Virus genome (UHGV): UHGV-0147806 | DNA: 37,585 nt | Strand: one strand, 5' to 3' | Source: a virus | Shown: positions 10,699-17,196 of the stretch, in pieces | Numbering within the stretch: position 1 is the first letter of the stretch | How the letters are laid out: each line of letters begins with the position of its first letter | Translations under genes and position numbers: made by a program | Notes under the pieces: model-generated | The model's database searches: none | The model's input: the letters and a program-made list of their open reading frames with translations, nothing else | Told to the model about the DNA's origin: nothing

Positions 10699-11529
10699 GT
10701 GCTGAACGAACTATGGGAACTGAAAAAAGCTGGTTTCGTTGATAAAAGCGCGTACACCTGGCGTGTGGCTGATAACAACGTTCAGCAGGAACAGCCAATG
10801 CAGGCAGAACTGCCGGAAGAAACCACCACGGCAACTGTAGTGAAAATCTCAGAGTGCGATTTAACCGCGACGATTGAACAACGCGGACCACAAACGGCGG
10901 ATGAACTGGCTACGCTGTTCGGTACAACATCCCGCAAAGTTGCTTCAACGCTGGCAATGGCAATCAGCAAAGGACGCCTGATTCGCGTAAACCAGAACGG
11001 TAAATTTCGTTACTGCATGCCGGGCGATAATTTACCAGCAGAGCCGAAAGCTGCATCGGTAGCGGAAACTGATGGTAAAGCCTTTCCTCAGCCAGCCGGT
11101 GTTGCGTTACCAGTACAGGAAGCGGCAACACAGGAAGAGCGTGAAAAAATTAAGGAGCAGGTTGTTGAGTTGGTACGCCAGAGTGGGCGCGAGACGTTAA
11201 GGCAACTGGAGGCCAAGACAGGTGCGACAAGATATCTGATGAGCATTCTTGCCAGAGAGTTGGTTGCCAGTGGCGATGTATACAACTCTGGCTATGGGTT
11301 ATTCCCGTCTGAACAGGCTCGTAAGGATTGGAAAAACGCCCGCAAAAAACTATCCAGGGCAAAGGTGAAAAAAACGGTTGTGGTTGATCCTGACCTTATC
11401 TGGTCATTACCAGACGGAGAAATACGCCGCTATGACAGGCGTCAGAACATAATCTGTCGCGAGTGCCGGAAGAGTGAAGTTATGAAACGTGTACTGGCAT
11501 TTTATCAAGGAAATCTTCGGTATTTATAG
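10699..11529 (+). CDS. YdaW-like protein, N-terminus probably disrupted (upstream fragment 10613..10663 in another frame)
   Basis: First ATG of the long frame is 10699, but the frame is open from 10630; a strong RBS (GGGAGGAAATTTTT-ATG at 10613) opens a 16-codon ORF in a different frame ending in TAG. Confidence 0.6.
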
Positions 11530-11826
11530 ACGTTACTAGATCAAAGAGCATTAGTTCATATGTAAATTGACATTTTTCTGGCACAGGGGAGAGCTAGCGT
11601 GGTTGTCCGCTTTGTGCCAGGAGCGGAAGTAGCAAACCAGATTTTACTGAAGCTTGAGCAGAGATACCACCAACTGATGCCTATCAGTAATGGGGCTCTT
11701 GATGATTCAAATAAAAAAGATTAAATTGATTAAGATTATTCTTACTTGATTAATTGTTTTGCGCATGGGCTTGGAAAACCATGAATCAGATCTTCACTAG
11801 ATAAAACAACGAACTATGGAGGAAGC

Positions 11827-12918
11827 GTGGGCGGCGAAACTAAGAATATTGATGAGATTGCAGGTATCATTTCCAGTAGAATTTTTGATGAGTTAGGCTG
11901 GAAAACCCAAAATACAACGGATATAAGTTGGGACTGTTGTTTGAGATCTCATCTAAACGCTAAACAACTTTTATCTGAAAACCCAAAAAAAACTCATCCT
12001 ACGGATGTAGTCTTCAAATATAAAGATCCTTATTCAGATATAACTCAGTATATACAAACAGATTTAAAATCTTATTGTGCCAGCACGCTTGACGGTACAA
12101 AATCAATATTGAACACTGTACGAAGTTTATCACAACAGGTAGCTTGCGCGCCAAGAAGTCCTGAGTGGCGGCGTTTATTTGTTGACAGCACAAATGAGAA
12201 ATATCAAGTTAACGGCCTACTTTTTATATATAATCATGACAATAAATATGACTCTGATTTAATTGAGAAATTAAATGGAGCAGCCACAGCAAGTTATGAT
12301 TTTCCAGAGAACTCTGTGATTGCCGTTTTTGACCCAACTATGATCAGATTTTTACTAGATGTTACAGAACACATCGAGACTAGAAGAGGAATTACTGACA
12401 AAGTAACACAAGAAACAAATATGTTATGGCAAAAAATTCCTGAGATAGAGAACTGTACATATTTTTACCCTGACAAACATAATAAAATAGCAACGAAAGG
12501 GAAAATCCTTCCAGCCACAATTGAAATGATAACATCTGGGATGATTTTTTACTCATATGAACACGAATATATTAGAAATGATGGTGGCGATAGAATAAGA
12601 AATAAAATATTGAATATATTCTGGAAGGAAGAGGTTGATTCCAGTAACCACTTTATATTTCTTTTAGAGTATATATTTAACTATCAATTACTCAATCAAT
12701 TTGACAAAATATTTGTTATAACTCCGTTCTCATCACACTCAAGCATTCATTTGCAATCCGCCATTAATGATTACATAGGAATATATTCTTTCACTCAATC
12801 TCATATAGAAACGTTAAAGGAAAAAATAGTATCCATTCCTTTTGTTAATCAAAAGCTATCTATATTTGAGTACCAGGTTGCCAGCAAGCAGGTGAATAGA
12901 AAATGTCACTTTTCATAA
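11827..12918 (+). CDS. Hypothetical protein A of AT-rich three-gene accessory operon (363 aa, GTG start)
   Basis: GTG at 11827 preceded by GGAGGA; AT-rich codon usage; no motif I can recognise with certainty. Confidence 0.7.
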   Translation: MGGETKNIDEIAGIISSRIFDELGWKTQNTTDISWDCCLRSHLNAKQLLSENPKKTHPTDVVFKYKDPYSDITQYIQTDLKSYCASTLDGTKSILNTVRSLSQQVACAPRSPEWRRLFVDSTNEKYQVNGLLFIYNHDNKYDSDLIEKLNGAATASYDFPENSVIAVFDPTMIRFLLDVTEHIETRRGITDKVTQETNMLWQKIPEIENCTYFYPDKHNKIATKGKILPATIEMITSGMIFYSYEHEYIRNDGGDRIRNKILNIFWKEEVDSSNHFIFLLEYIFNYQLLNQFDKIFVITPFSSHSSIHLQSAINDYIGIYSFTQSHIETLKEKIVSIPFVNQKLSIFEYQVASKQVNRKCHFS

Positions 12919-12928
12919 GGAGTATGAC

Positions 12929-14176
12929 ATGAATAAATATCAAGCTACGTTGTTTTCAAACGAAAGTGACATTTATACCGCCCTCCACTCTAACAGTGCA
13001 AAAATCACAGATGTTACATTAAGGAAAATCGCCTTCAATAGAGGGATAATTTTCCCATCTAACTTATCAAAAGAGGTATTGATAGAAAAATTATCAGACC
13101 TGCCATTTTCATATAATCACATCAGAGAAGTACAAGATAAACTGGCAACCAAACCCAGCCAAGACGTCTTCTCAGTAAAACGTATATATGAAGAATTTGA
13201 TATAGAGAAACTCTATGACGTTGTAAACAAAGTGAAAGAAAATAGACCCAAGTTGCTAGGGCATGAGAAAATTGATCATTACTCAGGCTTGCAAACCTAT
13301 CATATATCTATTGATTATACTGAGTTTGATTTTAGAAGGGGTAAGTTTCAGCAGAAAAAATTGTACAGTGGGAGTATAGTTTTTATAGTAAAAAAAGGAT
13401 ATGTTTCAGTAAGATATAACTATACGCCACGCATTTCAGAAATTCTCAAGCAAATAATTGATACATATTCATCAACAGTTTGTAACAACATAGTTGTCAA
13501 CGAAATAGATTTATCAAGTATCGTCGATACAGATCTTAGGAATATTTTTGCTGTTCATCTTTATGATTTTGATGGAAATTATAAAAAAACAGGACTTGAA
13601 TATGCTGGTCTTGAAAAGGTTAGAGTAAGCAGAATAAAAACATCTCTGGATATTAATGGAGATAATCTCGAAGGAAATAATAACGAAGAAACACAAGAGT
13701 TATTAAACAAGATTTCACCTTCTACAGATAACGAAAATGATGATGACATTAATAATCAGGAAATGGCATCTGACGATGATGAAAACCTAACTTTTAACAT
13801 TAACAATGCCGCGTATGATGGCCTATCATTAGTGAACGCACCTCAAATTAAGGAACTGTGCAGTGATGGGTTTTATCGAAGCTTAATTCGATGGAAGTCA
13901 TTTTCCTCAGTAGTTAAGAATCATACTATAACTTTTGAACTTAGTTTCGATGATAAATATCTTGGGAAAAATATAAAATTCAGAGCGTTATACAAAGAAA
14001 GCAACTCTGCATCCGCAGAGAGAGAAAAACTCAGTGACGCAGACTTTGATCAAGTCATGAAACAATTAGAAGATAAAATATTTTTGATTAATGACTTTAT
14101 TATCGAAGAGCATACCAAGCGATACCCAGTAACGAAAGCTATGTCTTGCGAGACTTTGAATCAGGAGGCTGGATGA
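12929..14176 (+). CDS. Hypothetical protein B of accessory operon (415 aa, acidic low-complexity linker)
   Basis: ATG after AAGGAG, 10 nt downstream of gene A; DNENDDDINNQEMASDDDEN linker. Confidence 0.7.
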   Translation: MNKYQATLFSNESDIYTALHSNSAKITDVTLRKIAFNRGIIFPSNLSKEVLIEKLSDLPFSYNHIREVQDKLATKPSQDVFSVKRIYEEFDIEKLYDVVNKVKENRPKLLGHEKIDHYSGLQTYHISIDYTEFDFRRGKFQQKKLYSGSIVFIVKKGYVSVRYNYTPRISEILKQIIDTYSSTVCNNIVVNEIDLSSIVDTDLRNIFAVHLYDFDGNYKKTGLEYAGLEKVRVSRIKTSLDINGDNLEGNNNEETQELLNKISPSTDNENDDDINNQEMASDDDENLTFNINNAAYDGLSLVNAPQIKELCSDGFYRSLIRWKSFSSVVKNHTITFELSFDDKYLGKNIKFRALYKESNSASAEREKLSDADFDQVMKQLEDKIFLINDFIIEEHTKRYPVTKAMSCETLNQEAG

Positions 14177-14829
14177 TGATAAAGGTAAAAATTTATAAAG
14201 CAGAAAAGGATATAACTAAAAGTGAGTTATTACATAAAGTAAATGACAACCTCTATGATGAAGATAAAGGATATGGTTTTCAAATCATTAATAACTCTGA
14301 AGTGCTTAAACTAAGATTTACCATGAGAAGCATTAGCAAGCAAAGCTTAGAATATGCTAATGGCGAGCGTTCAGAGGTTGAAATAGCAACTTACTTAAAT
14401 GTGGACTTTGGCGTCAGACAAGGGAAAAAAATCATACTATATGCCACTAATCCTCCATTAAGTATGAAAGTGCCTTATACTATGGTGCAAAAACTATTTG
14501 GTGAAGATAGTGGCTTGAGACCAGTAGAATTTGATCTGAGAAAAATTGTAAATGGTCTTTCTGAGGGCTTTGACATCAAGATAAAATCCATGTCTCTATC
14601 TAATATCTCTGTTGATCCTTTTACTTTAGCAAAGACAAAAATAGTAAGCTCAAAGAATCTCCAAGAAATTTATCAGAATAAATACATGAATAGTTCGGCC
14701 GTTTTTGATTCCGTACATTTCTTCGTTAACGGAATTGAAACGGAATTATCTAGGACGGGTAGATTCCGTGTGAGAGAGAGTCAGCTTCCAACACTTTTAT
14801 CCATCTTAGAAACTCTCAGAATTTTGTGA
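14173..14829 (+). CDS. Hypothetical protein C of accessory operon (about 218 aa)
   Basis: ATGATG start overlapping the gene B stop (ATGA), preceded by AGGAGG; strong intrinsic terminator follows. Confidence 0.65.
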   Translation: MMIKVKIYKAEKDITKSELLHKVNDNLYDEDKGYGFQIINNSEVLKLRFTMRSISKQSLEYANGERSEVEIATYLNVDFGVRQGKKIILYATNPPLSMKVPYTMVQKLFGEDSGLRPVEFDLRKIVNGLSEGFDIKIKSMSLSNISVDPFTLAKTKIVSSKNLQEIYQNKYMNSSAVFDSVHFFVNGIETELSRTGRFRVRESQLPTLLSILETLRIL

Positions 14830-14856
14830 AATATATAAGGAACTCAGGCCTACTTC

Positions 14857-14884
14857 GTCAGTAGGCCCCTTTTCCGGTTTGTAC
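14857..14884 (+). terminator. Rho-independent terminator of the three-gene operon
   Basis: GGCCTACT-tcgtc-AGTAGGCC stem-loop followed by CCTTTT. Confidence 0.75.
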
Positions 14885-15375
14885 TTATCTAGTCATCGAT
14901 TTGATCGTAATGATTCACACAGGATGCTGTTAGCAATGTCCGCTCTTCGCTCAAAGCGGACTAAAATGTTGGCTTGTTTCTGACTTAGAGCATTTAAGGA
15001 AGTGCTGGTGGTGACTGGTTGTTGTGTTCCATTTCTACAGAATAAAATCACAGAAACTATACCCAATAGTTGTATTGAATCACTGACGAGACAGCCTCAT
15101 ATTTATCAGGACTGGTGTGCGTCTAATACAGGGGGTTGTCGTGCTGGTTCTCAAATGTGCGCTGGCTATTGCGGCTGTAATGGCAATTTATTGTCTTGCT
15201 GTTGTTCTTATGGAGCGGCTTTCTGATTGATTACATACTGGCTAGAAAAAAGGTGTTACCTTGGTTTATCTTTGTCCGGCAAGGTGCGCTCATTAATCTT
15301 AAGTAAATTTATTGCTCAAGTATTCAGATTACTTCTTATGGTTGAAGTCTCCTGTCAATGTAGAACCAATATATT

Positions 15376-15415
15376 TACAAAAATGAGACCCGTCGGGGAT
15401 AGCCCTGCCGGGTCT
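15376..15415 (-). terminator. Rho-independent terminator of the DUF1971 gene (minus strand)
   Basis: AGACCCG ... CGGGTCT stem with an inner GGG/CCC pairing, followed on the minus strand by CATTTTTG. Confidence 0.6.
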
Positions 15416-15444
15416 GACTGTTAAAGCATTTTTAATATGATCAT

Positions 15445-15783
15445 CTATTTTTTGGTGCTATAGACTTTTTCGCCCGAAAAGTCTGGAGCGACCCAAAAGT
15501 TAATATTAAACTGAGCATCATCGCTTAGTTCAACACGGTGCCAGTATTGTGGTGGGCTTGTTGCAAAAGCGCCAGCATTAATGACTACTTTTATCTCCGG
15601 TTCAGTAGCATTCTCATCAGTAAAACCATAATATGTTACAGTGCCTTCCATTACGCACAACTGCCCAAAAACACCTGCTGCTGTATTATGATGTGTTAAT
15701 AACGCTGAAGGTACGTTCTCTTTTGTGAAGAACGGAGTTGAGCGTTTGATTACCCAATCTTTAGGAATTCTCTTGTGTGTCAT
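15445..15783 (-). CDS. DUF1971-family (YeaR-like cupin) protein, 112 aa
   Basis: ATG at 15783 preceded by GGAGGAGGTGG; the translation resembles E. coli YeaR as I recall it. Confidence 0.7.
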   Translation of the reverse strand: MTHKRIPKDWVIKRSTPFFTKENVPSALLTHHNTAAGVFGQLCVMEGTVTYYGFTDENATEPEIKVVINAGAFATSPPQYWHRVELSDDAQFNINFWVAPDFSGEKVYSTKK

Positions 15784-16596
15784 AACCACCTCCTCCAAAA
15801 CATGCATTAAAAATGCATCTTTTGGAGGGTTATGTCAAGCTGTTATGAAACACATAATTGATATGTTGATTAGAGGAGAAGATAGAATAAATATGGTTGT
15901 TTTTCGTATAACTATTTGTTTTACTTTTAGTTTATGCATTCTGTGTGTTAGGAATAAGTTATTAAAGTTTAATCAAAAAATCTCGATGTAGTCCACATAG
16001 ATTACTGTTACTGAACCTTATTGTGTGTATTAGTTGTGTTCTGAAATTTCAGCTTAATTATTTATGATGTATTTTTTAACGATAAATATTTTCCCAGGAT
16101 ACCTTTACTGTGTATATAAATAAATTATATACGCATAAATAATGTAAAGGCGTCCTTTTAGATATATCTTATCAAATGTTAATGACTTGAGTGGGAAATA
16201 TGATTCCAGCAACTTATCATGTGGCTACTTTATAAAAATAATGCCCATATAAAACAACAAGCGAAAAGGATTACGGATAAAAAAGGAGCGAGATGTGCGA
16301 ACTTGTTATTTTCCATGTTTAACCACCTTAAATAATTGATGATGACGGGATGATTGCATCTGTAATGCTTTTATTGAAATGTTATGATAAAAAAGAACTT
16401 TTGCATAACATTAAAATGTAATTTATCTAATCGTTTTTAATAATAAGTGTCGTATTTCTATCCTTGTACCAGCTATTTGATATGTAGTGTTTGTTCATGC
16501 TATGTGGGGCTTTACACCATAGCCAGTTTATTTATACTTTATTCGTCAGCCTGAACAACTGGCATCTGCTGCGCTGCGCCATCGAGAGATTGAGAA

Positions 16597-17196
16597 ATGG
16601 CGCATATACAACTGGTCAAACAAACCTCTTCTGGTTTACTTCTCCCGGCGACGCCGGAGAGTTGCGATTTTCTGCATCAAATCAAAATAGGTGAGTGGAT
16701 ACACGCAGACTTTAAGCGTGTGCGTAACTACGCATTCCACAAGCGTTTTTTCAAACTCCTGCAACTGGGATTCGATTACTGGACTCCGGTCGGTGGGGCG
16801 ATCACGCCTCGCGAACGAGAACTGCTGTCTGGTTTCGTTGATTACCTGTGCGAATCAGTTGGTCGGGAACACACGCCAGCCCTGAGTGATGCCGCAGAGC
16901 AATACCTTAACACCGTTGCGACTCGTAGAACCCGGGATACGGCGTTGCTAAAGTCGTTTGAGGCTTTCCGCGAGTGGGTAACCATTCAGGCCGGATTTTA
17001 CACCGAGCATATTTATCCGGACGGTAGCCGTGGGCGTCGGGCAAAATCCATCGCTTTTGCGAATATGGACGAAGTCGAGTTTCAGCAGGTTTATAAATCT
17101 GTACTGAATGTGCTGTGGAACTGGATTCTGTTCCGTAAATTCTCCTCTCAGGAGGAAGTTGAAAATGTGGCCGCACAACTACTGGAGTTTGCGTAA
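16597..17196 (+). CDS. Phage nin-region protein of unknown function (199 aa)
   Basis: ORF immediately upstream of ybcO-like and Q-like genes; stop/start overlap with the next gene. Confidence 0.6.
   Translation: MAHIQLVKQTSSGLLLPATPESCDFLHQIKIGEWIHADFKRVRNYAFHKRFFKLLQLGFDYWTPVGGAITPRERELLSGFVDYLCESVGREHTPALSDAAEQYLNTVATRRTRDTALLKSFEAFREWVTIQAGFYTEHIYPDGSRGRRAKSIAFANMDEVEFQQVYKSVLNVLWNWILFRKFSSQEEVENVAAQLLEFA

Follow-up and report, generated by a model that had tools for sequence, protein, structure and literature searches.

The three-gene operon analyzed here (genes A, B, and C; Table 1) is, as judged by homology, a divergent, Rac-prophage-borne member of the known 3HP defense system. It lies in the window, that is, the whole 37,585-nucleotide stretch of the virus genome UHGV-0147806 that was analyzed. 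The best explanation of its function, to which we give somewhat more credence than doubt, is that of a divergent 3HP system in which an RdgC-like DNA sensor built from B and C would license the nuclease A, resulting in abortive infection.

The operon encodes divergent homologs of the 3HP proteins

The PADLOC models PDLC03004, PDLC03005, and PDLC03006 (Hp1, Hp2, and Hp3) matched A, B, and C with raw HMM E values of 5e-41, 9.6e-11, and 3.8e-11, respectively. In BLASTP comparisons with the proteins of plasmid pFR109, the identity was 33% for A (E 9e-49), 25% for B (E 7e-12), and 22% for C (E 2e-12). The Hp2 matches of B were limited to the N-terminal ~200 aa; in its C-terminal part, G298, W322, and F340 were invariant in the family alignment, which included the reference Hp2. 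PHROGs profiles also matched all three proteins, and A was assigned to phrog_7059 (E 3.8e-91). The first-pass annotation, made from the sequence without database searches, had called the proteins unrecognizable and the system undescribed. Neither description holds, since PADLOC and PHROGs profiles recognize all three proteins, the Pfam family PF26115 covers A, and the trio corresponds to the published 3HP (Rousset et al. 2022), present in PADLOC as Hp1/Hp2/Hp3.

The 3HP system ("hp + hp + hp", plasmid pFR109) was cloned and first reported by Rousset et al. 2022 (PMC9122126). Its source was a P2-like prophage hotspot of Escherichia coli E1114, and the validated system protected against P1, one of the eight phages tested (PMC9122126). 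It has been counted in published defense-system surveys, one of which reports its abundance in Salmonella Typhi and Paratyphi A, and no mechanism for it was found in the searchable literature. An anti-phage role of the operon, proposed earlier as a candidate function, is supported by homology to this validated system, at only 22–33% identity. The subclade of C contributed one 50%-identity representative among the 885 family representatives.

Scans of A, B, and C against Pfam-A and NCBIfam gave nothing significant, and no Walker A, HNH, or TIR signature was seen, in agreement with the first reading of the sequence. We also looked for relatives with structural, replication, or metabolic functions and found none for any of the three proteins.

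Organization and boundaries of the operon

The three codirectional, coupled ORFs were confirmed at the coordinates and lengths first assigned (363, 415, and ~218 aa), together with their overlap and Shine–Dalgarno-like sequences. A ribosome-binding site, GGAGG, precedes A at 11818–11822. The stop codon of A is 10 nt from the start of B, with AAGGAG at 12917–12922, and the stop of B and the start of C overlap in ATGA (14173–14176), with AGGAGG at 14163–14168. The GC content of the operon was 33.5%, compared with 46.2% in the window outside 11500–16500, which bears out the AT-rich character that had been ascribed to the cassette.

Table 1. Coordinates of the operon and its associated features in the window
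Feature	Coordinates	Strand	Remarks
Upstream noncoding AT-rich region, cassette-specific, presumed promoter region	11637..11826	+	
Gene A (Hp1 homolog)	11827-12918	+	363 aa, GTG start
Catalytic-type motif codons of A, H57-P-T-D60 ... T-D79-L-K81-S-Y83	11995..12075	+	
Gene B (Hp2 homolog)	12929-14176	+	415 aa
Gene C (Hp3 homolog)	14173-14829	+	218 aa, ATG at 14173, pI 9.2
Hairpin + CCUUUU, probable intrinsic terminator of the operon	14847..14873	+	inside cassette

The claim that the operon has its own AT-rich upstream region stands in that this region is cassette-specific from ~11637; it contains two direct repeats, TTGATTAA, at 11726–11733 and 11746–11753. The promoter presumably lies within it, but a consensus scan of the 190–297 nt AT-rich upstream region found no sigma-70 consensus promoter. 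Downstream of C, a hairpin formed by GGCCUACU/AGUAGGCC (14847–14867) is followed by CCUUUUCC. It has an 8-bp GC-rich stem and a 5-nt loop, with a dG of −13.4 kcal/mol (RNAfold), and is probably the intrinsic terminator of the operon. A strong terminator had been placed at 14857–14884; the hairpin is present, but those coordinates were about 10 nt off. The consensus scan did not list this hairpin among its terminators because the U-tract is short (only 4 U).

More than 900 E. coli genomes matched only the first ~107 nt of 11530–14900, which places the left boundary of the cassette near 11637. From genomes sharing the downstream flank, the right boundary was located at ~14913–14947.

The trio is coinherited cargo of diverse mobile elements

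The carrier of the operon is a lambdoid Rac-type prophage, in which the cassette is placed after a DUF977 gene and adjoins the replication genes; the same prophage encodes RecET. Among 5426 complete E. coli genomes, the operon was present in 11 and the downstream flank in 354, in line with the earlier view that this interval varies between strains and holds horizontally acquired prophage cargo. In other genomes, the slot after the DUF977 gene holds other cargo, and in APEC E18055 it contains two hypothetical proteins with no significant PADLOC match. Lambdoid prophages thus have a variable cargo slot behind DUF977.

Homologous loci were collected at the species level with the A motifs as search patterns, so the conservation of these motifs among the resulting 80 loci is ascertainment-biased. 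These loci come from Proteobacteria, Verrucomicrobiota, Acidobacteriota, Myxococcota, Cyanobacteria, and other phyla. B directly followed A in 77 of the 80 loci and C directly followed B in 75, and the loci without an adjacent B or C were at contig ends. A, B, and C are therefore an obligate coinherited unit, as seen in about 75 of the 80 loci.

The first-pass annotation had also raised the co-occurrence of the genes as a unit in unrelated contexts, and this was observed. The trio was found in P2-like, lambdoid, filamentous, and Vibrio mobile elements, in defense islands, and, across many phyla, in chromosomal islands that lie outside recognizable prophages. In E. coli TD225-C4, it is flanked by an IS3 transposase and an integrase. 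The neighbors are heterogeneous and rich in integrases and transposases, and they include components of Gabija, PARIS, OLD, AbiL, and MADS.

For dN/dS, the Serratia homologs were unusable, their synonymous sites being saturated, and a 96.8%-identical E. coli copy was used. The values were 0.14 for A, 0.06 for B, and 0.12 for C, showing purifying selection on each gene.

A is a predicted PD-(D/E)xK nuclease homologous to GAPS4a

GAPS4 consists of GAPS4a and GAPS4b (Mahata et al., bioRxiv 10.1101/2023.03.28.534373 and 10.1101/2025.09.07.674715). GAPS4a carries the motif HGxD-SxK, and a D-to-A change there abolishes defense (Mahata et al.). The PD-(D/E)xK-like arrangement first noticed in A is real but was underrated as weak. 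In an alignment of 35 homologs (26–87% identity), eight residues (H57, P58, D60, D79, L80, K81, S82, and Y83) were invariant, and E4 was nearly invariant (at least 90% of the 35). The newer Pfam family PF26115, "GAPS4 PD-(D/E)XK nuclease domain", was recorded in precomputed annotation on 71 of 71 A homologs, and a recent PGAP name reads "PD-(D/E)XK nuclease domain-containing protein". Profile searches of the A family, and likewise of the B and C families, against PDB sequences returned nothing below E 0.08.

The A HMM matched three GAPS4a sequences with E values of 1.6e-18 to 3.7e-14 and a Vibrio one with 6e-4, and hhalign of A against GAPS4a^RiKo gave a probability of 96.7% (E 3.2e-10). The homology spans about 200–220 residues and includes the catalytic HxxD motif. 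Because automated alignment left the DxK strand of A and the SxK strand of GAPS4a out of register by 1–2 residues, D79 and K81 were equated with the S and K of GAPS4a by motif position and not by alignment. On the basis of the motif, the precomputed Pfam match, and the GAPS4a homology, A is predicted to be a PD-(D/E)xK nuclease. By these profile comparisons, A is a remote homolog of GAPS4a, a relationship that is new here.

B and C have predicted RdgC-like folds, and B is probably related to GAPS4b

The predicted monomer structures of B and C are both RdgC-like. In B, a helical N-terminal domain (aa 1–75) precedes a predicted RdgC-like body (aa 76–238 and 291–400), which is split by a disordered acidic linker (aa 239–290, nt 13643–13798). 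This linker, already noticed in the first-pass annotation, has a net charge of −15 and is conserved in the family. C is predicted to be a compact RdgC-fold protein, and phage-encoded proteins annotated as RdgC resemble it in structure. Both C (pI 9.2) and the core of B (pI 8.8) are basic; the linker of B is acidic.

In a Pfam-A scan, neither B nor C matched the Pfam RdgC family at E ≤ 1, and the 145 B and C homologs all lack recorded Pfam domains. B and C as sequence-detectable paralogs were rejected (hhalign, 0.7%). Since neither shares sequence similarity with the other or with Pfam RdgC, the idea of a B/C ring is based on the predicted monomer folds. A SAP/HeH-like reading of the B N terminus was dropped (best match HeH/LEM, E 0.15, residues 30–53), and an isopropylmalate synthase match on C was spurious.

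In hhalign, the probability for B was 92% (E 6.7e-7) with a four-sequence GAPS4b profile but dropped to 25.6% when a single sequence took its place. The alignment covers only the N-terminal ~220–230 residues of B, with the C-terminal third unaligned. When the B HMM was run against 79 ORFs, five GAPS4b ORFs took the top ranks. These results support B as a remote homolog of GAPS4b, which is also new here. C showed no similarity to GAPS4b (hhalign, 0.1–0.3%), and a C-like gene was absent from all five GAPS4 loci examined.

A proposed mechanism and its alternatives

In GAPS4, DNA breaks lead to degradation of host and phage DNA and to abortive infection, and the activity needs both partners (Mahata et al.). 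GAPS4b dimers form a predicted ring, with GAPS4a docked on the helical domains, and the complex is a 2:2 heterotetramer (Mahata et al.). Defense by GAPS4 is relieved by catalytically dead phage homing endonucleases. The E. coli recombination-associated protein RdgC (PDB 2OWL) forms rings with a basic central pore, presumably the site of DNA binding, and IML3-CHL4 (CENP-L/CENP-N) is a small-plus-large heterodimer of the RdgC fold that contacts DNA.

In our favored model, A would be a PD-(D/E)xK DNase effector, and B and C would be two nonidentical RdgC-fold DNA-binding subunits. They may encircle DNA as a ring or horseshoe, in the manner of RdgC homodimers, GAPS4b dimers, and CHL4-IML3 heterodimers, and the N-terminal helical domain of B would be the docking site of A. 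The B/C sensor would meet abnormal infection DNA, such as free ends, breaks, or replication intermediates; its engagement would license A, and nonselective DNA degradation would then abort the infection. Before the sensor engages, the conserved acidic linker of B could be autoinhibitory by mimicking DNA. From these comparisons we infer defense by this variant, the complex and its stoichiometry, the trigger, the nonselective degradation, and the role of the linker.

A wider reading, which we put forward tentatively and with rather more doubt than confidence, is that 3HP and GAPS4 would be two branches of one previously unlinked DNA-integrity-sentinel superfamily, "RdgC-ring plus PD-(D/E)xK nuclease". 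The DNA-encircling sensor of 3HP would then be a heteromer of the large Hp2/B and the small Hp3/C, like CENP-N/CENP-L, gated by the acidic DNA-mimic linker of Hp2. If this is true, 3HP would be triggered by DNA ends or breaks, a 3HP host would be sensitized to quinolones and DNase toxins, and phage DNA-end-binding proteins, reported to counter GAPS4 (Mahata et al.), may counter 3HP as well. The link of Hp1/Hp2 to GAPS4a/GAPS4b, together with the predicted RdgC folds of Hp2 and Hp3, provides a concrete and testable model of 3HP. The sensitivity to quinolones and DNase toxins that it predicts would be relevant to pathogens carrying 3HP.

The same parts could also serve in direct, nonabortive immunity, with B/C recognizing a specific phage protein, DNA structure, or modification and A cutting invading DNA only. 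The validated 3HP is narrow (P1 only), whereas GAPS4^RiKo is broad and protects against many phages (Mahata et al.), so the triggers of the two systems may differ; the canonical DxK motif and the extra subunit C of 3HP, both absent in GAPS4, point the same way. However, no domain of B or C is suggestive of protein sensing, their folds are known for nonspecific DNA binding, and the homologous GAPS4 degrades host as well as phage DNA. We consider direct immunity unlikely.

Two roles in which defense is absent or incidental were both judged very improbable. The operon could be a DNA-metabolism module of a phage or mobile element, in which RdgC-like proteins modulate RecA or recombination and the nuclease processes DNA for the replication, recombination, or anti-RecBCD needs of the element. 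RdgC does regulate RecA-dependent recombination, phage proteins annotated as RdgC are structurally like C, and both the adjoining replication genes and the RecET of the prophage fit such a role. Yet a homologous trio, cloned alone, gave phage resistance; the trio studied here is sporadic in E. coli, and it occurs in accessory hotspots and defense islands rather than in conserved phage replication modules, as well as in the chromosomal islands outside recognizable prophages. A toxin–antitoxin-like addiction module that stabilizes the mobile element, with the nuclease A as toxin, B and/or C as neutralizers, and defense as a by-product, would suit tightly coupled, coinherited genes with the nuclease first and their carriage by a wide variety of mobile elements. 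ISApl1 interrupts one E. coli copy, and B is split in two distant loci, so the system can be lost or inactivated, which was also counted in favor of addiction. On the other side, both GAPS4 partners are needed for activity and neither neutralizes the other, and B and C have large DNA-binding folds, unlike typical small, labile antitoxins.

Comparison with known systems

Shedu and Hachiman, to which the GAPS4 authors drew a comparison, share with the model proposed here the concept of a PD-(D/E)xK effector licensed by DNA ends or damage, but no homology links their sensor modules to the operon, which encodes no helicase or ATPase. The RdgC/RexA/CHL4-IML3 fold class binds DNA nonspecifically as homo- or heterodimers, and it has no detectable sequence similarity to B or C. 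RexA is a phage-exclusion protein of the RdgC fold, with exclusion not strictly dependent on DNA binding. Unlike B/C in the proposed model, RdgC and RexA have no nuclease partner; the partner of RexA is the membrane protein RexB.

As in A-B, the nuclease gene of GAPS4 precedes the gene of its partner and is translationally coupled to it, and the predicted ring of GAPS4b is consistent with the RdgC-like fold of B. GAPS4 consists of two genes or one fused gene, whereas loci of the 3HP type add the third gene C; GAPS4 works with two genes, and the analogy leaves the role of C unaccounted for. The motif of GAPS4a is noncanonical (HGxD-SxK), in contrast to the canonical HPxD-DxK (DLK) of A, and B differs from GAPS4b in its conserved ~50-aa insert, which is acidic and disordered. 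Given the low sequence identity, the published GAPS4 search criteria are not expected to capture 3HP, and 3HP is not mentioned in the GAPS4 preprint.

In gene order, codirectionality, and approximate gene sizes, the three-gene operon agrees with the 3HP reference, and both are prophage accessory cargo. The A of the operon is ~30 aa longer and its B ~55 aa longer, and the operon belongs to a divergent subclade of Enterobacterales, Vibrio, and Aeromonas. Within a lambdoid Rac prophage, it follows the DUF977 gene, whereas the reference occupies a P2 cos-proximal hotspot.

Identity of the operon

The PADLOC profile search showed that the three proteins matched three consecutive models, with A corresponding to Hp1 (E = 5e-41), B to Hp2 (E = 9.6e-11) and C to Hp3 (E = 3.8e-11). 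Hp1, Hp2 and Hp3 make up the "3HP" anti-phage system, which surveys attribute to Rousset et al. 2022 (PMC9122126); the proteins cloned in that study are listed as "hp + hp + hp" on plasmid pFR109 (Table S2A). In BLASTP comparisons with the pFR109 counterparts, A showed 33% identity (E = 9e-49), B 25% over the N-terminal 200 aa (E = 7e-12) and C 22% over almost the full length (E = 2e-12), and the gene order A-B-C was the same. Each protein also matched a PHROG family (three families, function unknown), and no match was obtained in Pfam-A and NCBIfam scans, the Pfam-A copy being one without PF26115. The first-pass annotation had proposed an undescribed anti-phage or abortive-infection system, but all three proteins match, in order, one that is described and experimentally validated. 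The concordant PADLOC and BLASTP matches therefore indicate a divergent member of this system. Of the features that define 3HP, the two open to testing, namely the order of the genes and the homology of each protein, were both found, and we regard membership in the 3HP family as highly probable.

Operon layout and prophage setting

Annotated genomes with identical copies of the region, together with the ORF layout, identified the window as a Rac-type lambdoid prophage of Escherichia coli inserted at ttcA. The three coupled, co-directional ORFs described in the first-pass annotation were all recovered on the + strand. The proposed terminator after C was also present as a hairpin, although it had been placed approximately 10 nt too far to the right; it was not listed by a consensus terminator scan, owing to its short U-tract. 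A consensus scan upstream of the operon found no sigma-70 consensus promoter. The upstream region specific to the cassette contains two identical direct repeats of TTGATTAA (11726-11733 and 11746-11753), spaced 20 nt apart, which could be promoter or operator elements.

Features of the operon and its downstream flank
Feature	Position	Strand	Details
Gene A	11827-12918	+	363 aa; GTG start; GGAGG at 11818-11822
Gene B	12929-14176	+	415 aa; start 10 nt past the A stop; AAGGAG at 12917-12922
Gene C	14173-14829	+	218 aa; ATG overlaps the B stop (ATGA); AGGAGG at 14163-14168
Hairpin 3' of C	14847-14867	+	8-bp GC-rich stem, dG -13.4 kcal/mol, then CCUUUU
DUF1971/TehB-family gene	15445-15807	-	inside the low-GC stretch beyond the operon
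Very AT-rich non-coding stretch	16001-16500		28.6% GC

The GC content of the operon was 33.5%, compared with 46.2% in the window outside 11500-16500. When 5426 complete E. coli genomes were compared, the cassette borders fell at ~11637 and ~14940. The operon was present in only 11 of these genomes, whereas the left flank of ~100 nt was common to more than 900 and the right flank to 354. Low GC (29-41%) runs on for ~1.6 kb past the operon (14940-16500), and 354 E. coli genomes share this flank independently of the 3HP cassette.

In lambdoid prophages, a variable cargo slot lies just 3' of a DUF977 (ydaW-like) gene (window 11530-11640 and 14913-16700; fetched comparison loci L088 and L089). The slot holds a 6-kb cluster with a transporter, LysR and gamma-glutamylcyclotransferase in isolate L3_E36_ETEC, and hypothetical proteins of 320 and 333 aa (WP_014639476.1 and WP_000354966.1) in a Qin-like prophage of APEC E18055; the latter pair had no PADLOC match and could be another uncharacterised accessory system. 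In E. coli 30COLEC (NZ_CP070930.1), ISApl1 interrupts a copy of the operon that is otherwise 99.9% identical, indicating natural inactivation of this copy. E. coli TD225-C4 (NZ_CP035860.1, 3841124-3845019) carries a 96.8%-identical operon outside Rac, flanked by an IS3-family transposase on one side and a site-specific integrase on the other, and thus the cassette has moved between contexts within E. coli. Relative to this copy, the dN/dS values of A, B and C were 0.14, 0.06 and 0.12, respectively.

Conservation of the trio

A search with an alignment of A homologues against one genome per GTDB species revealed relatives in 172 species, from which 80 loci were retrieved and all of their ORFs scanned by iterative HMM searches. 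These loci span Alpha-, Beta-, Gamma- and Deltaproteobacteria, Verrucomicrobiota, Acidobacteriota, Myxococcota, a Synechococcus, Armatimonadota and Zixibacteria. A B homologue lay directly 3' of A in 77 of 80 loci and a C homologue directly 3' of B in 75, every missing neighbour coinciding with a contig end. The A-B-C trio is an obligate unit. In 2 of the 80 loci, from an Acinetobacter MAG (L024, 8984-10076) and Photorhabdus noenieputensis (L081, 8999-10112), B occupies two separate ORFs, with A and C intact, reflecting either a frameshift/pseudogene or an assembly error.

The nearest flanking genes were heterogeneous (134 proteins, 131 Pfam families), most commonly phage integrases, OLD/Abi-type ATPases, transposases and type III restriction helicases, and PADLOC identified components of Gabija, PARIS, Old, AbiL, MADS, Septu and Menshen among them. 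The trio also occurred in the Q-A hotspot of a Klebsiella Peduoviridae phage, in Vibrio phage-like elements and at one genome end of a filamentous (Tubulavirales) Pseudomonas prophage, phage 54-4 (OR621021.1, 485-3252). The depositors labelled the last trio [quoted passage not shown], indicating that the fold of the third protein had already been seen by structure-based phage annotation; no link to 3HP or GAPS4 was found in the searchable literature. An exhaustive C-family profile search (E <= 1e-10) yielded 698 representatives of 50%-identity clusters, all of them stand-alone proteins of ~225 aa, and the subclade of the window's own C was a single representative.

Functional prediction of A, B and C

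Pfam PF26115, named "GAPS4 PD-(D/E)XK nuclease domain" in UniRef, was found on 71/71 A homologues from a large-database search. Across 35 homologues (26-87% identity), H57, P58, D60, D79, L80, K81, S82 and Y83 were invariant and E4 was kept in at least 90%; judged from this alignment, the predicted motif has the canonical E...(P)D...DxK layout. GAPS4a and GAPS4b sequences were taken from the supplementary files of the 2025 GAPS4 preprint (bioRxiv 10.1101/2025.09.07.674715). The A-family HMM matched three GAPS4a sequences (E = 1.6e-18 to 3.7e-14) over ~220 residues, and hhalign gave a probability of 96.7%, so the homology reaches beyond the catalytic motif.

No Pfam domain was found on homologues of B or C, and profile searches against PDB sequences gave no match. 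AlphaFold2 modelled C with a pLDDT of 93.6 (pTM 0.85) and B with a mean pLDDT of 77, with cores (80-235 and 290-400) above 90 and a disordered segment at 240-289. RdgC-annotated phage proteins were recovered independently by Foldseek against viral predicted structures. B and C are thus predicted to adopt the RdgC fold, yet their sequences do not place them in the RdgC family, and no similarity between the two sequences was detectable. Both C and the B core are basic (pI 9.2 and 8.8, respectively); the net charge of the B linker is -15, and its acidity is kept across the family. According to the RexA structure paper, RdgC dimers are ring-shaped and bind DNA non-specifically, and earlier studies suggested a basic central pore as the site of the DNA; RexA is a structural relative, and IML3-CHL4, a small and large subunit heterodimer of the same fold joined by a continuous beta-sheet, contacts DNA.

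Proposed mechanism and alternatives

No published mechanism for 3HP was found in the searched literature. We propose that A is the DNase effector and that B and C would be two RdgC-fold DNA-binding subunits, probably forming a ring or horseshoe round DNA, with A docking on the N-terminal helical domain of B by analogy with GAPS4. On meeting free DNA ends, breaks or replication intermediates from infection, the sensor would license A to degrade DNA, thereby aborting infection, and the conserved acidic linker of B may hold the sensor closed by mimicking DNA within the same molecule. We lean slightly towards the whole package of 3HP membership and a nuclease plus RdgC-fold sensor; a specific DNA-break trigger is held with less confidence.

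The same parts might instead respond to a specific trigger and restrict phage without abortion, consistent with protection only against P1 by the validated 3HP, the range of GAPS4 being broader. Alternatively, the operon could serve the mobile element itself as an accessory module for recombination or replication, which would fit the regulation of RecA by RdgC and the presence of RdgC-annotated proteins in phages, but a cloned 3HP homologue confers defence by itself and the trio is found in accessory hotspots. A further alternative is a toxin-antitoxin-like addiction module.

Comparison with GAPS4

GAPS4, which comes from Vibrio GMT islands, consists of two genes. [quoted passage not shown] The preprint does not mention 3HP or RdgC.

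In five GAPS4 loci fetched from viral contigs, GAPS4b was directly 3' of GAPS4a in every case and no C-like gene was present. When the B-family HMM was run over 79 ORFs, the five GAPS4b ORFs ranked first (E = 2e-4 to 1.3e-3; next ORF, 0.48). In hhalign, the B family matched a four-sequence GAPS4b profile with 92% probability (E = 6.7e-7) over 219 co-linear columns (B 7-236, GAPS4b 4-253) but a single GAPS4b sequence with only 25.6%, which makes the link remote. C did not match GAPS4b. One GAPS4b homologue (L085, 4878-6146) terminates in an acidic (DA)n tail, DADADADADADADSDGDKD. This tail is reminiscent of the acidic linker inside the B proteins of 3HP, a hint that segments of acidic, DNA-mimic-like character recur across a putative 3HP/GAPS4 superfamily.

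The operon lacks the two-gene architecture of GAPS4 and A lacks the HGxD-SxK motif; the operon should therefore not be classed as GAPS4, although it probably works in a similar way. The value of the finding lies in this mechanistic lead rather than in a new system, the operon being a divergent member of the known 3HP.
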